A program made the translations under genes and the position numbers. Shown piece after piece: positions 2,610 through 27,068 of a DNA stretch of 64,000 nt. The number at the start of each line of letters is the position of its first letter. Positions within the stretch are counted from its first letter, which is position 1. Below the pieces are notes generated by a model. It saw only the letters and a list, made by a program, of their open reading frames with translations. It was not told the DNA's origin and searched no databases. Source of the DNA: Promethearchaeota archaeon (lineage in GTDB: Archaea > Asgardarchaeota > Lokiarchaeia > Sigyniarchaeales > SOKP01); NCBI GenBank assembly GCA_016839585.1, contig JAEOTZ010000058.1, positions 1 through 64,000 of the forward strand, in the 5' to 3' direction.

Positions 2610-3842
2610 TTAGGTCTTTATTAATATTTTAGCATTTTTCTGCCAATTTCTCACTGTATTTGGGGAAGCACCGCTCATTTTTGCAGATAACTCCTCTGGA
2701 TTGATATCTAAAAGTTCTTCAACAGTACTAATTCCAAAGGCTTTCAAACTTTCTGCTGTCCCTTTACCAATGCCTTTTACTTCAACTAAAGGTGAGTTCT
2801 CCTCTTCCTTAAGATCTTCAGCTACTTCGGTATCATCACTTTCTTCATATAATTTTTCAACCTCAAAATCCAATCCTGATGTTTCAGGAAGATCAACTTT
2901 ATCGGTATCAGCAATTCCAGCACTTGTTATAAAGAACTCACACTCCTCTGGAGGTAAATCAGGAGCGTCCACGATAACCGCTCTTCGCATTAATGAATTA
3001 TTTGAAGAAAATCCTTTTGTTTTGAACATTACTCTGAAATGACATCCATGAGCAACAATATTTCCTCCTATAGCATCATTGCCTGAAAACATTCCCATCA
3101 TTCTTACAGCAACTTGATTAGTAAGAAGTATAGCACAGTTATATGTCTCGGCGACTCTCGATAGTCCATGAATCATATTATTAAGAACTGCTTGTCGAGG
3201 GGCAAGGCTTCCGATACCCACATATTCAGAACGCAATAAAGCCATCAAGCTGTCCACAACAATCACTCTTACTCCACGAGTTTTGCATAAAGTCTCTGCC
3301 TTTTGGATCATCTGCGACTGATGATCGGAAGAATAGATCCTTGCATGAAATATTTTTGCTAATACTTCTTTTGGATTTAAACTAAATCGTCTTGCAATTC
3401 TTTTAATCTTTTCCTTAGAGAAGGTATTTTCTGTATCAATATATGCAATTGAGCCATTGAGTCCCCCTTTTTTGGGGGGCAATTGAACAGTAACAGCTAT
3501 TGTATGTGCTAGTGCTGTCTTCCCTGACTTAAATGGTCCATAAACTTCCGTTAGTTTACCTGTTTGAAAGCCTCCTCCCAATATTCGATTAAGCTCAGAA
3601 GATCCAGTAGTAATAAATTCCACATTATCATCAATCTCTCCAGCAGGAATAAATTCAGTCATCCCTAAAGCATTTCTTGCATTCCAGATGAGCTTTTTTG
3701 CTGTTTTATCCCCTAACCCATCGATTTTAGATACGATATTACTGGGAGACATTGCCAATGCTTCTGAGGTACTGATCCCATTTTCCTGAAGTAGTTTGAT
3801 CTGACGGGCATTGATTCCTTTTATTTGACTTAAATCAGCCAT
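2610..3842 (-). CDS. radA: RadA/Rad51-family recombinase paralog with an extra C-terminal HhH domain
   Basis: N-terminal HhH, ITTGSSELNRILGGG, Walker A GPFKSGKT, YIDTENTF, VVDSL, TNQV, GGNIVAH; acidic linker then VKGIGKGTAESL. Confidence 0.92.
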   Translation of the reverse strand: MADLSQIKGINARQIKLLQENGISTSEALAMSPSNIVSKIDGLGDKTAKKLIWNARNALGMTEFIPAGEIDDNVEFITTGSSELNRILGGGFQTGKLTEVYGPFKSGKTALAHTIAVTVQLPPKKGGLNGSIAYIDTENTFSKEKIKRIARRFSLNPKEVLAKIFHARIYSSDHQSQMIQKAETLCKTRGVRVIVVDSLMALLRSEYVGIGSLAPRQAVLNNMIHGLSRVAETYNCAILLTNQVAVRMMGMFSGNDAIGGNIVAHGCHFRVMFKTKGFSSNNSLMRRAVIVDAPDLPPEECEFFITSAGIADTDKVDLPETSGLDFEVEKLYEESDDTEVAEDLKEEENSPLVEVKGIGKGTAESLKAFGISTVEELLDINPEELSAKMSGASPNTVRNWQKNAKILIKT

Positions 3843-3901: not shown

Positions 3902-3915
3902 TATTTAAAGAAAAA
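3902..3915 (-). promoter_or_regulatory. TTTTTCTTTAAATA motif upstream of radA
   Basis: Exact copy, 60 nt from the start codon. Confidence 0.7.
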
Positions 3916-3953: not shown

Positions 3954-4331
3954 TTATTCTTCAAGGATAAATTTCAGATTCTCAATATATTCTTCAGGAG
4001 AAATTCCATGTAATAAAGCCCTATGAAGCATTCTGATATTTAACTCTTCAACACCATTTTCTTCATAGATAGGAAGGAGATCAGTATGAATGGCTTTAAG
4101 AATTCTAAGTATTGAAAATTCAGAACGCCTAAACTGACCAAAATATCCACCAAAAGCCGTAAATAAGTTAGCCATTAATTCAAGATCTTCGCTAGTAAAT
4201 TTTCTGTAACACTCAACACACGCAATCCCATAGTTAACACCAGTTTGACAAAGCGTTGCTCTATCTTTAATTTCATGTCGGCAGATAGAACATTTTATTG
4301 ATTGACCAAAATCTTGTGATTCAGTTATCAT
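3954..4331 (-). CDS. small Zn-finger protein (CxxC...CxxC)
   Basis: CSIC and CVEC motifs; motif 22 nt upstream. Confidence 0.75.
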   Translation of the reverse strand: MITESQDFGQSIKCSICRHEIKDRATLCQTGVNYGIACVECYRKFTSEDLELMANLFTAFGGYFGQFRRSEFSILRILKAIHTDLLPIYEENGVEELNIRMLHRALLHGISPEEYIENLKFILEE

Positions 4332-4352: not shown

Positions 4353-4366
4353 TATTTAAAGAAAAA
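4353..4366 (-). promoter_or_regulatory. TTTTTCTTTAAATA motif, leaderless spacing
   Basis: Exact copy ending 22 nt before ATG 4331. Confidence 0.7.
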
Positions 4367-5961: not shown

Positions 5962-6714
5962 TCACCATGGAGCTTCTTCAATTCCTATTTTATGAGGTTT
6001 TTGAGGTTTATACCTGCGACGGGCAATTCTTCTAATTCTTAACTTATGAGGTTTCTTACTTCTAGAATGGATAAGAAATATTATTTTAGTTATTCCCATA
6101 AAACTCAGCTTTAAACTCCAATAAATCACGGCTATACTAAGATAATAAAAAACATCAAGGAAAAATATAATTTCAAAATAGTATAGAAATGCCCATAAAA
6201 TAAATATTGAAATGACAATGAGAAAAATTTGATAAAGGGTATTCACGGGATCAAATCGTATAGACCGAAAAAAACATGAAATATCAGCACTTGAAGGAGC
6301 AGCACCAATTATAGTAGAAATCAAGATTAAAACGGCGATAAACCGAATACCAAACCAAACATTGGAATATGCTATAATAGTAAAAAAAAGTACAGCTAAC
6401 CAAGTTGAGATATAAAGCGGGGCAAAACTAATTAAAAACGCTTGTAGAAAACTTTCTGGTTTGACCTGTACCGCACCATGGGGAGCAACATATCCCATTT
6501 TTTCATGCCTGAATTTAATCTCTATTCTACGAGGCTTTACACCAACCAAAAGACTAATTAGGTAATGGCTTACCTCATGAATCACAACACCTATATACGC
6601 TAACCTTATAAGAATACCATAAAATGGTCTGATACTTTCACCCTTTGATATAAGATATTTAAAAAACAGGGAAATCATAAAAATTATGACAAACACAACT
6701 AACTCATCTAACAT
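5962..6714 (-). CDS. membrane metalloprotease (M50/site-2-protease-like)
   Basis: HEVSH, G-x-V, ISFAP, APSSAD motifs, multiple TMs; start moved to ATG 6714 because it lies 22 nt from the promoter motif at 6736-6749. Confidence 0.8.
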   Translation of the reverse strand: MLDELVVFVIIFMISLFFKYLISKGESIRPFYGILIRLAYIGVVIHEVSHYLISLLVGVKPRRIEIKFRHEKMGYVAPHGAVQVKPESFLQAFLISFAPLYISTWLAVLFFTIIAYSNVWFGIRFIAVLILISTIIGAAPSSADISCFFRSIRFDPVNTLYQIFLIVISIFILWAFLYYFEIIFFLDVFYYLSIAVIYWSLKLSFMGITKIIFLIHSRSKKPHKLRIRRIARRRYKPQKPHKIGIEEAPW

Positions 6715-6735
6715 GAAGAAAAATTTCATTGAACA

Positions 6736-6749
6736 TTTATAAAGAAAAA
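6736..6749 (-). promoter_or_regulatory. TTTTTCTTTATAAA motif variant
   Basis: Heads the M50 / 2-TM / RadB-like operon. Confidence 0.6.
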
Positions 6750-7015
6750 ATTGTCATTAATCTAAGTGATAAATTTTCAAAAAATCTAATATCTAAGTTT
6801 AAAACCAATTCTTCAAGTTATTATATATTTTTCTTCTTTCGAATTAAAACTAATATTAAATTTAACAGGATTAATCTCTACGCAATTTTCCTTGAATTTT
6901 CATTTGTGGAGTTGAAGGGCAAAATTATTGCTGGATTTAATTTTATACATTTTTGTGAAAATCAAAAATTCTAAACTGTGAGTAGACGGTCTCTTTTCAT
7001 CATTTTTCATTTCAT

Positions 7016-7030
7016 GCAAAATATTTAAAA
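7016..7030 (+). promoter_or_regulatory. canonical-type BRE-TATA (GCAAAATATTTAAAA) upstream of the TFB paralog
   Basis: A-rich BRE position followed by TTTAAAA, 45-60 nt before the start. Confidence 0.5.
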
Positions 7031-7074
7031 GGGGTAGTGGTACTCAAATATTTCTTAGTTATTAAAAAAAAATA

Positions 7075-8322
7075 GTGATCAAAAAAACAATGGTAACTTA
7101 TAACCTAATTCAAAAATCAAAATTTGATTCTAATGGAGAAGAAATCTCAGAATTGCAATGTGATTTATGCAATTCAGTTAATATTAAAGAAACCAATGAA
7201 GGCTATGTATGTGGTGACTGTGGAATTGTATTAGAAGTCCTAAAATTACAATATTATCGTCCATATAATGATGATATCCTTCAGTATGCCCCATTAGGAC
7301 AAACCCAAATAGGCACAAAACGGGAAAGGCATTGTTTTCCTAACTCTATTCAATGGGAAAATTGGAATAAACTTCATTCTATCCGTGAAAATGAAAAAGT
7401 TGTATTAGATAACGCTAAGCAAACGATCTCAAAAATTTTCAGTAATTTGCATTTACCTAATACTTATCAAAAAATTGTTTTTCAAAGATTTAATAAAGTG
7501 AGATCTAAGCTTAGACCAAGTACGAAATATCGGAGTGTTGAAAAACTAGTTCCAGTTATTATTTATTATACATTTAAGCTTAGAAATATCTCTATTAATG
7601 AGGAAGAATTAATAAATGCGTCAGGTATATCGAAAAAAGAATTCAAGGATTTTTTTCTACAATTAAGGAATTTTATTCCTGAATATGCAAAAAGAAACAG
7701 ACAAGATTATATAATTCAAAAAATGCTCCAAGTAACCGAATATTTTGATTTAGGTTTAAGATTTTATTATTTATCTAAGAAGATAATGTATAAATTATGG
7801 GAACTTATTAAAAATACAACTGACGATGTTATTGCAGGGGTTGCGACTTCAATCTCGGCACTATGTTCATATAAAGATTTTATAAATGTTAACGCAATAT
7901 GTAAAATGTTAGGAATTAAAATGTCAACTGTTCAATTTCAAGTAAGAGAAAGAATATTTAGAAAATTAAAGGTTGATGGATTTATTAGTTTAGTACGATC
8001 TTCCGATCTTTTAAATGAAATCATGGAAAAATTAGGACTCTTAAAGCTAAAAGAAAACCATACTGATGAAGAACCTGCAGATTTTGTTGAAATAGTGCTG
8101 GGAAATGCATCACAGGTATTTAATTGCCATAATGGAATTGATTATTATTTTTTTGCTATAAAAGATGATCATAATAATCCCGTATTAATAACAATTAATA
8201 TTTACAATCCAATTATACACAAAGAACATAATCAAAGCTATCAAGCTCAGGAGGCGAAACTATTTGATTGTGAGCGCTTGGTGTATTATCGAACAAAAGA
8301 TCCTCCCTTGAGTATTGTTTGA
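7075..8322 (+). CDS. tfb: divergent transcription initiation factor B (TFB/TFIIB) paralog
   Basis: Zn ribbon CDLC...YVCGDCGIVL, two cyclin-like repeats, terminal HTH (VNAICKMLGIKMSTVQFQ); lacks EWRAF B-reader; has a C-terminal extension. Confidence 0.82.
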   Translation: MIKKTMVTYNLIQKSKFDSNGEEISELQCDLCNSVNIKETNEGYVCGDCGIVLEVLKLQYYRPYNDDILQYAPLGQTQIGTKRERHCFPNSIQWENWNKLHSIRENEKVVLDNAKQTISKIFSNLHLPNTYQKIVFQRFNKVRSKLRPSTKYRSVEKLVPVIIYYTFKLRNISINEEELINASGISKKEFKDFFLQLRNFIPEYAKRNRQDYIIQKMLQVTEYFDLGLRFYYLSKKIMYKLWELIKNTTDDVIAGVATSISALCSYKDFINVNAICKMLGIKMSTVQFQVRERIFRKLKVDGFISLVRSSDLLNEIMEKLGLLKLKENHTDEEPADFVEIVLGNASQVFNCHNGIDYYFFAIKDDHNNPVLITINIYNPIIHKEHNQSYQAQEAKLFDCERLVYYRTKDPPLSIV

Positions 8323-8412: not shown

Positions 8413-8426
8413 TTTTTCTTTAAATA
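8413..8426 (+). promoter_or_regulatory. TTTTTCTTTAAATA motif
   Basis: Exact copy; continues CTCTTAC, like the radA copy (CTCTCAC). Confidence 0.65.
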
Positions 8427-18574: not shown

Positions 18575-18588
18575 TTTTTCTTTAAATA
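18575..18588 (+). promoter_or_regulatory. TTTTTCTTTAAATA motif heading the 18.6-26.9 kb operon
   Basis: Exact copy 19-28 nt before TTG 18607 / ATG 18616. Confidence 0.7.
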
Positions 18589-26936: not shown

Positions 26937-27068
26937 AATTAACTTACTTTTTTTTACAGACAGACATCTTCACTATATAAAGGAAAAAAAGAACCTCTGC
27001 TCTCTTCTTTTTATTTAAATATATTTGTATAAGGTAGATCTTAATTTTCAAATACATACAAAAAAAAG

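Follow-up and report, generated by a model that had tools for sequence, protein, structure and literature searches.

The prevailing view is that archaeal promoter choice depends chiefly on gene-specific regulators. Full-length paralogs of transcription factor B (TFB), among them TFB2 of Sulfolobus and the multiple TFBs of haloarchaea, direct RNA polymerase to a subset of promoters, and to our knowledge clear pairings of a TFB paralog with a core-promoter sequence of its own are rare. Here we describe a divergent gene of the TFB/TFIIB family, TFBx, from a 64,000 nt stretch of a Promethearchaeota archaeon (GenBank assembly GCA_016839585.1, contig JAEOTZ010000058.1, positions 1 to 64,000 of the forward strand; hereafter the window). 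This organism belongs to the Loki lineage of the Asgard archaea, which are the nearest archaeal relatives of eukaryotes; some Asgard archaea can now be grown in culture. The window is AT-rich (~30% G+C) and its closest relatives are metagenome-assembled genomes (MAGs) labelled Promethearchaeota. TFBx is best described as a lineage-specific TFB subfamily of high divergence, paired with a candidate for a dedicated core-promoter class in which a T-rich element occupies the position of the B recognition element (BRE). No description of the TFBx family or of the T-rich motif was found in the literature.

TFB3 of the Sulfolobales is a truncated TFB (ribbon and coiled coil) that lacks the DNA-binding core and acts beside TFB1 (PMC6101594, PMC5817253). 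It is DNA-damage-responsive and activates the ups and ced DNA-exchange genes (PMC6101594). In S. acidocaldarius its target promoters have the element A(N)TTTC between -44 and -39, on the upstream side of a weak BRE, and the tfb3 promoter itself has the hexanucleotide motif too (PMC5817253). TFB3 and TFBx are alike in being TFB paralogs and, as far as gene context suggests for TFBx, in a link to DNA-repair, DNA-transfer and membrane genes. The TFB3 targets and the candidate TFBx targets both carry a short, non-palindromic T-rich element that ends in C. The likeness is one of function only. Unlike TFB3, TFBx has a complete core, to which a further domain is added. The element also differs in position, as it lies at the BRE itself in the TFBx island, and the TFBx promoter, in contrast to that of tfb3, lacks the T-rich motif. 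The parallel with TFB3 drawn in a preliminary description of the locus is likewise limited to function; TFB3 is truncated and binds no DNA (PMC5817253, PMC6101594).

The cell-cycle paralog TFB2 of Sulfolobus has BRE and TATA elements similar to those of TFB1 that differ in spacing (bioRxiv 10.64898/2026.09.06.749720). In comparison with TFB2 and the haloarchaeal TFBs, TFBx is far more divergent, and its candidate targets have a clearly different, near-invariant sequence at the BRE position. The eukaryotic TFIIB-related factors Brf1/Brf2 and Rrn7/TAF1B resemble TFBx in combining a TFIIB-like core with a C-terminal extension, and Brf was among the TFBx fold matches. The TFBx extension, however, resembles nothing detectable, and the family occurs in one Lokiarchaeia family only. 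TFBx was rejected as the ancestor of Brf/Rrn7 because it is confined to one GTDB family, and on the same narrow distribution it is a late lineage-specific invention.

TFBx lies in an intact open reading frame (ORF) at 7075-8322 (+). Alignment of orthologous upstream regions placed its true start at ATG 7090 and not at GTG 7075. The string AATAGTGATC is conserved upstream of the orthologs and is followed by a 7-9 nt spacer, then ATG (TTG in some genomes) and then GCAAC; GTG 7075 therefore belongs to the Shine-Dalgarno sequence GTGATC. The protein consists of a Cys4 ribbon, a linker, two cyclin folds with a helix-turn-helix (HTH) and a 120-aa C-terminal extension, and conservation among 296 homologs spans its full length. 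Its features in the window are as follows (pLDDT, predicted local distance difference test).

7090-8322, + strand: TFBx coding sequence, 410 aa, stop codon at 8320-8322, start fixed by the Shine-Dalgarno GTGATC and by ATG or TTG in orthologs
7159-7221, + strand: TFIIB-type Cys4 zinc ribbon (C29, C32, C46 and C49, numbered from GTG 7075)
7231-7374, + strand: remodelled B-reader/B-linker without GPEWRAF, supported by alignment with canonical TFBs, family conservation and low pLDDT
7381-7962, + strand: two cyclin folds (the TFB core), supported by pLDDT, Foldseek and a profile match to human TFIIB cyclin 1
7918-7950, + strand: recognition helix KMSTVQFQVRE of the C-terminal HTH (residues 282-292)
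7963-8319, + strand: C-terminal extension of ~120 residues, absent from canonical TFBs

By its predicted fold, TFBx is a member of the TFIIB/TFB family. Scans of the protein against Pfam and NCBIfam gave sub-threshold TFIIB matches only, and the assignment was made on a profile match to TFIIB, ribbon matches and fold matches. A profile of 47 TFBx homologs, compared with the PDB, matched cyclin 1 of human TFIIB (E 1.5e-5). All four ribbon cysteines were invariant among these 47 members, 33 of which matched Pfam Zn_Ribbon_TF (best E 3.8e-6; E 0.011 for the window protein itself). The AlphaFold2 model had pLDDT >90 over the core (residues ~110-320), and the top 41 Foldseek matches to it were all TFIIB, TFB or Brf, with both cyclin folds aligned. 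The two tandem cyclin folds of TFBx could be superposed on the TFB/TFIIB core; against P. woesei TFB (1ais_B, 1d3u_B) the TM-score was 0.76 over 200 columns, with a root-mean-square deviation of 3.4-3.9 A (3.4 A for 1d3u_B). Identity to the structural TFB/TFIIB matches was only 14-18%. TFBx shares with canonical archaeal TFB (Pyrococcus TFB; 1AIS, 1D3U) and TFIIB an N-terminal Cys4 ribbon, two cyclin folds connected to it by a flexible linker, and an HTH ending the second fold. It differs from canonical TFB in lacking GPEWRAF, in its shorter linker, in its (R/K)MSTIQxQVK helix, in the extra 120-aa extension and in falling below the Pfam and NCBIfam thresholds.

TFBx was present in 53 out of 68 genomes of a single GTDB family of Asgard archaea and was not found in 232 genomes of 29 other Asgard families (E <=1e-20). 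The family comprised 296 clusters at 90% identity, and 158 representatives were recovered at E <=1e-30 among 50% clusters. The absence of TFBx from G231, G147, G249 and G156 was rejected as true loss, as contig ends explain it, and these genomes were not counted as absences.

The segments that distinguish TFBx were delimited by aligning the family with the eight canonical TFBs of the window's genome, which have varied ribbons and helices. The preliminary description held that the B-reader was lost. GPEWRAF is indeed absent, and only RP(Y) and the TQIG stretch align with the canonical (G)PEWRAF and GLST.I. The linker between ribbon and cyclin folds is ~23 residues shorter than in canonical TFBs and carries another strongly conserved sequence, which is near-invariant in family representatives (LQYxRPYNEDxxQYA..LG.TQIGT.RER). 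On these alignments, the B-reader is replaced by a different conserved segment and not simply lost. The low pLDDT of this region is as expected for a flexible linker.

The claim that the BRE-reading HTH departs from the canonical type was upheld and extends to the whole family. The HTH sits at the canonical position, but it lacks the TEVT(V/L)R(N/S)RYK sequence; the TFBx helix (R/K)MST(I/V)QxQV(K/R), KMSTVQFQVRE in the window, aligns with (V/I)TEVT(V/L)R(N/S)RYK of the eight canonical proteins, and both arginines of TEVTVRNRYK are replaced by glutamine. This remodelled helix was conserved across ~35 TFBx cluster representatives. Within the C-terminal extension, a conserved helix (GFxSLVKSSDLL) is followed by a variable stretch rich in beta structure and, at the very end, by (K/G)(D/G)PP. 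Modelled separately with AlphaFold2 it gave three strands at low confidence (pLDDT 60), and a protein-atlas look-up detected no similarity to anything and allowed no fold to be assigned. The terminal (K/G)(D/G)PP ends nearly all long members (8305-8319 in the window), even where the preceding 80 residues cannot be aligned, and may be a docking motif.

The T-rich motif has the form TTTTTTC-TTTAAATA, in which a T-rich element at the BRE position is followed by a TATA box. Exact TTTTTCTTTAAATA sites numbered 32 in the 3.45-Mb genome, where ~1.4 would be expected from base composition, and six of them lie within the first 33 kb of the window. Permitting up to one mismatch, we found 14 sites in the window against 1.3 expected, a count reached in none of 100 shuffles. 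The TFBx loci contained 115 exact sites in 1.3 Mb, compared with 9 per Mb genome-wide, and motif density around TFBx was ~10x the genome average in ~70 genomes. The preliminary description had placed a TFB paralog inside a motif-bearing block, and both the fold and profile assignment and the number of sites around the gene confirm it.

A logo of 327 sites from 80 loci comprised a T, TTTTTC, TTTAAATA and a purine five bases on, with an A (72%) 21-22 nt beyond the TATA box, at the spacing of a start site. This A coincides with the A of the ATG in many motif genes. By this geometry the motif is a genuine archaeal promoter of the type with leaderless transcripts, and its T-rich heptamer occupies precisely the BRE position. 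Only 11 out of 389 strong-TATA leaderless-type configurations (~3%) belonged to the T-rich class, and on this minority count the element was rejected as the default leaderless promoter. A bulk analysis of upstream regions detected no clean general BRE.

Synteny was read from 80 fetched TFBx loci, most of which share a conserved gene order with two divergent arms (RadA paralog/g3954/RadB-like/g5605/M50-like <> TFBx/Pren/g10862/helicase/DUF1922). The motif sites assigned to genes in the window were the following.

238-251, + strand: exact T-rich promoter of gene 290-670 (g290)
3902-3915, - strand: exact T-rich promoter of the RadA paralog
4353-4366, - strand: exact T-rich promoter of the 125-aa gene 3954-4331 (g3954), with leaderless spacing
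6736-6749, - strand: variant TTTTTCTTTATAAA of the divergent M50-like/RadB-like operon
8413-8426, + strand: exact TTTTTCTTTAAATA of the prenyltransferase-toroid gene Pren, directly after TFBx
18575-18588, + strand: exact T-rich promoter of the HhH-membrane/HerA-VirB4-like operon, found before 5/11 orthologs
27008-27021, + strand: T-rich promoter variant of the DUF998-domain gene, found before 6/6 orthologs

The motif was counted upstream of orthologs in ~50 genomes, permitting up to 2 mismatches; the encoded proteins are merely 40-50% identical. Most transcription units of the island had it, ahead of the leading gene of each operon.

Upstream of the 125-aa gene g3954: 34/35 loci
Upstream of the M50-like gene: 48/56 loci
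Upstream of Pren: 42/54 loci
Upstream of the RadA paralog: 31/39 loci
Upstream of g290: 16/18 loci
Upstream of the DUF998 gene: 6/6 loci
Upstream of internal operon genes: 0-2 of 42-50 loci
Upstream of TFBx: 5/77 loci (absent from 72/77)

TFBx itself is predicted to be expressed from a different type of promoter, as an mRNA with a Shine-Dalgarno sequence and with a likely operator. The features of its upstream region are given below.

6980-6998, no strand: imperfect palindrome of the GAGnAGA-N5-TCTnCTC type, ~20 nt upstream of the TFBx BRE/TATA
7016-7031, + strand: TFBx core promoter, a purine/A-rich BRE-like element and a TTTAAAA(G) TATA box
7032-7089, + strand: conserved initially transcribed/leader region with the Shine-Dalgarno GTGATC at 7075-7080, from 60 aligned upstream regions

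The sequence GCAAAATATTTAAAA at 7016-7030 is part of the upstream region conserved in orthologous loci, where the promoter takes the form GAGGAAAAGG-TTTAAAA-GCAAACTCC. The mRNA leader, with its Shine-Dalgarno sequence, is ~35-45 nt long. The suggestion that the gene's own promoter is of a different, canonical-looking type is in keeping with this conserved purine-rich BRE/TATA and with the lack of the motif in nearly all TFBx loci. The palindrome reads GAGTAGAC-G-GTCTCTTTTC in the window and GAGAAGAAGSCTTCTTCTC in relatives; it was found in most syntenic loci, with both half-sites varying, and is a candidate operator controlling TFBx. A separate promoter type for TFBx fits the first step of a proposed cascade, in which canonical machinery induces this TFB and the TFB then redirects RNA polymerase to the T-rich promoters.

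In the mechanism we propose, TFBx would be dedicated to the control of an accessory island that comprises recombination/repair genes and membrane-complex genes. It would be transcribed from its own purine-rich BRE/TATA promoter under the control of a factor bound to the upstream palindrome. The protein would replace the housekeeping TFB on promoters that carry TTTTTTC at the BRE position and have the TATA-binding protein (TBP) bound to them. Recruitment of RNA polymerase would fall to its zinc ribbon and remodelled reader/linker, and contact with the T-rich element to its HTH helix with the two Arg-to-Gln changes, while its C-terminal extension would serve as a regulatory or partner-binding input. 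We infer that TFBx binds TBP and RNA polymerase and reads the T-rich element directly, and likewise infer the cascade and an inducing signal; we regard TFBx as a good candidate for a sigma-factor-like switch.

That TFBx directly uses the T-rich promoters as an alternative TFB is a tentative reading, to which we give somewhat less than even weight. It is favoured because the element lies at the BRE position, the helix expected to touch it is altered and conserved, and domain scans recognised no transcription-factor or DNA-binding regulator domain in the module genes other than TFBx. It is also favoured by co-occurrence at the family level, TFBx and the motif enrichment both being confined to one GTDB family, and by the finding that non-syntenic, extra and decayed TFBx copies likewise have the motif just downstream. 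A single further case points the same way: in G117, from which the module is absent, the DUF998 ortholog lacks the motif. The idea of a cascade is strengthened circumstantially.

A fuller version of this reading appears doubtful to us. In it, a re-engineered BRE-reading helix would give TFBx a core-promoter class of its own, the first such case demonstrated for a TFB paralog in archaea, and two glutamines in place of two arginines would read an 'inverted', T-rich BRE. TFBx would act as a true sigma-like switch that turns on an Asgard island for recombination and possibly intercellular DNA transfer, made up of the RadA paralog, the helicases, the HerA/VirB4-like membrane complex and surface proteins. 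The signal inputs, in this version, would be the C-terminal extension and the upstream palindrome.

Several findings weigh against direct reading of the motif by TFBx. The preliminary description expected the motif to be missing from genomes lacking this TFB clade. The expected co-occurrence held for the GTDB family as a whole but not for G264, a genome 99% complete in which the M50-like gene and Pren are directly adjacent, TFBx is cleanly gone and no copy occurs elsewhere in the assembly. G264 nevertheless keeps the motif (0-1 mismatch) next to its homologs of Pren, g290, g1326, Hel308 and DUF998. In family genomes without a TFBx match the motif exceeded its reversed-pattern control 1.9x, compared with 2.4x in those with a match, although several of the absences behind the 1.9x figure are contig breaks. 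In the window's genome, 26 out of 32 exact sites lie outside the island. A subclade with an MSTINYQ helix keeps the same motif in its one readable locus, and no covariation of helix and motif was seen. Finally, the family-level co-occurrence of TFBx and the motif is a single evolutionary event.

Some of these findings would be explained if TFBx regulated the island as a co-activator or bridge beside the housekeeping TFB, with TTTTTTC read by another protein or by a canonical TFB paralog. We consider this possible, though rather unlikely. TFB3 provides a precedent: this TFB paralog activates genes of DNA damage and DNA transfer yet does not bind DNA (PMC6101594, PMC5817253). The survival of the motif in G264, the lack of covariation between helix variants and motif, and the eight canonical TFBs of the genome with their varied ribbons and helices are all consistent with such a role. 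However, whereas TFB3 is truncated, TFBx retains the two cyclin folds together with a conserved HTH. The T-rich element lies directly against the TATA box, just where TFB sits, which leaves little room for a separate factor, and the module contains no other conserved DNA-binding protein.

A second explanation, which we judge improbable, is that the motif and TFBx are unrelated. TTTTTTC-TTTAAATA would then be a strong promoter class of the general machinery in this archaeal family and TFBx would have other targets, while the frequency of the motif in the island would be owed merely to common expression needs or ancestry. Among hexamers 5' of TTTAWATA, TTTTTC shows the highest genome-wide enrichment (38 observed, 5.7 expected), and the many sites outside the island, the enrichment that persists in family members without a TFBx match and the retained motif of G264 all agree with it. 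Against it stand the ten-fold motif density around TFBx in ~70 genomes, the systematic absence of the motif from TFBx itself and its recurrence downstream of paralogous and decayed copies. The class also makes up merely ~3% of strong-TATA leaderless-type promoters, and the sole regulon ortholog examined in the module-less G117 lacks the motif.

Least of all do we expect that TFBx is not a transcription factor and that its TFIIB-like fold is a scaffold in a recombination/repair or membrane complex, comparable to Orc6, which has a TFIIB-like fold: the gene lies amid RadA, RadB-like and helicase genes, the lower ranks of the Foldseek list include human Orc6 and cyclins, and the B-reader motif is replaced, but the TFIIB-type Cys4 ribbon is kept and invariant, the best structural matches are all TFIIB, TFB or Brf with both cyclin folds aligned, and the HTH helix is conserved.

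Direct use of the T-rich promoters by TFBx would amount to sigma-like promoter switching built on a TFIIB scaffold, and the island would be a candidate Asgard DNA-damage or DNA-exchange response. The locus offers a compact, testable system, combining a changed DNA-reading helix with a near-invariant 15-nt promoter element at the exact place where that helix is expected to make contact, a factor promoter under separate control and a defined island of recombination, repair and membrane genes. Should this reading be refuted, a conserved T-rich promoter class and a TFB-like family of hundreds of members would still need explaining.

The leftward arm of the island contains the RadA paralog, the 125-aa gene, a RadB/KaiC-like ATPase, a small membrane protein and the M50-like membrane protein. 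In the rightward arm TFBx stands at the head and is followed by the prenyltransferase-toroid surface protein, a 195-aa protein, an SF2 helicase and a DUF1922 zinc protein. Hel308 is found farther out in the island, and often also the HhH-membrane/HerA-VirB4-like operon. By gene context TFBx may be associated with DNA damage and DNA transfer, given its conserved linkage to the RadA paralog, the RadB-like gene, the helicases and the HerA/VirB4-like membrane operon. At the M50-like gene (6714-6749, -) the TATA box ends only 6 nt before the annotated ATG 6729, whereas a second ATG, at 6714, lies 21 nt after it; on this spacing the gene probably starts at ATG 6714, on a leaderless mRNA.

The module behaves as an accessory island, since the near-complete genomes G141, G117 and G180, which lack TFBx, also lack orthologs of Pren, the 195-aa protein (g10862), the helicase and the RadA paralog wherever each was searched. 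Co-occurrence is not strict: among 71 genomes, 40 had both TFBx and the RadA paralog, 12 had TFBx only, 6 had the RadA paralog only and 13 had neither. The island RadA is an extra paralog, as the window's genome (G000) holds four full-length Rad51/RadA genes. The copy in the window (2610-3842, -) has an extra HhH/DUF4332 at its C-terminus, and the others lie on contigs C60, C2 and C16. The window and C16 copies are accessory types that are missing from several related genomes without TFBx; TFBx-less genomes hold just two housekeeping RadA/Rad51 types.

A second, divergent TBP paralog of 201 aa was found in the same genome (G000:C89:65494-66096, -; L153:1465-2070), with orthologs of at least 49% identity in ~20 out of 71 family genomes. 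It was rejected as a dedicated partner of TFBx, as its patchy distribution does not follow that of TFBx. Other motif sites of the genome lie upstream of a FEN1/XPG-like gene and of genes for a second prenyltransferase-toroid protein, an FG-GAP propeller protein and unknowns; one motif group adjoins a decayed TFBx copy. At G000:C33:5779 and G000:C63:45775 the exact motif stands, with a leaderless spacing of 22 nt, before a 684-aa gene with a LAGLIDADG-like segment and an 863-aa unknown, and the sequence downstream of the motif is near-identical at the two sites.

Copy number of TFBx reaches 3-6 in some genomes. The window's genome has a single full copy together with decayed fragments at G000:C64:34716-34862 (-), G000:C16:34857-34997 (+) and G000:C57:2047-2175 (-); they represent the ribbon, joined to another ORF, 47 aa of the C-terminus and part of the HTH. 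These scattered fragments point to past duplication and decay. The decayed paralog at G000:C87:62998-70008 (locus L100) retains the cyclin part with 2 in-frame TAA codons. An exact T-rich motif follows it after 20 nt and is itself followed by a 248-aa gene, and a FEN1/XPG-like nuclease is among the nearby motif-bearing genes.

The MAG 9R3_44 (L011-L014) has four TFBx copies with near-identical upstream regions outside the usual synteny, two of which adjoin HerA/VirB4-like giant genes and an M50-like gene. This arrangement suggests recent duplication or a mobile context. The ortholog at G192:C64:44273-45358 contains three in-frame stops, all of them TAG, and single TAGs are present in the orthologs of G315 and G177. 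These genes could be pseudogenes, or TAG could be read through (pyrrolysine-type) in some relatives.

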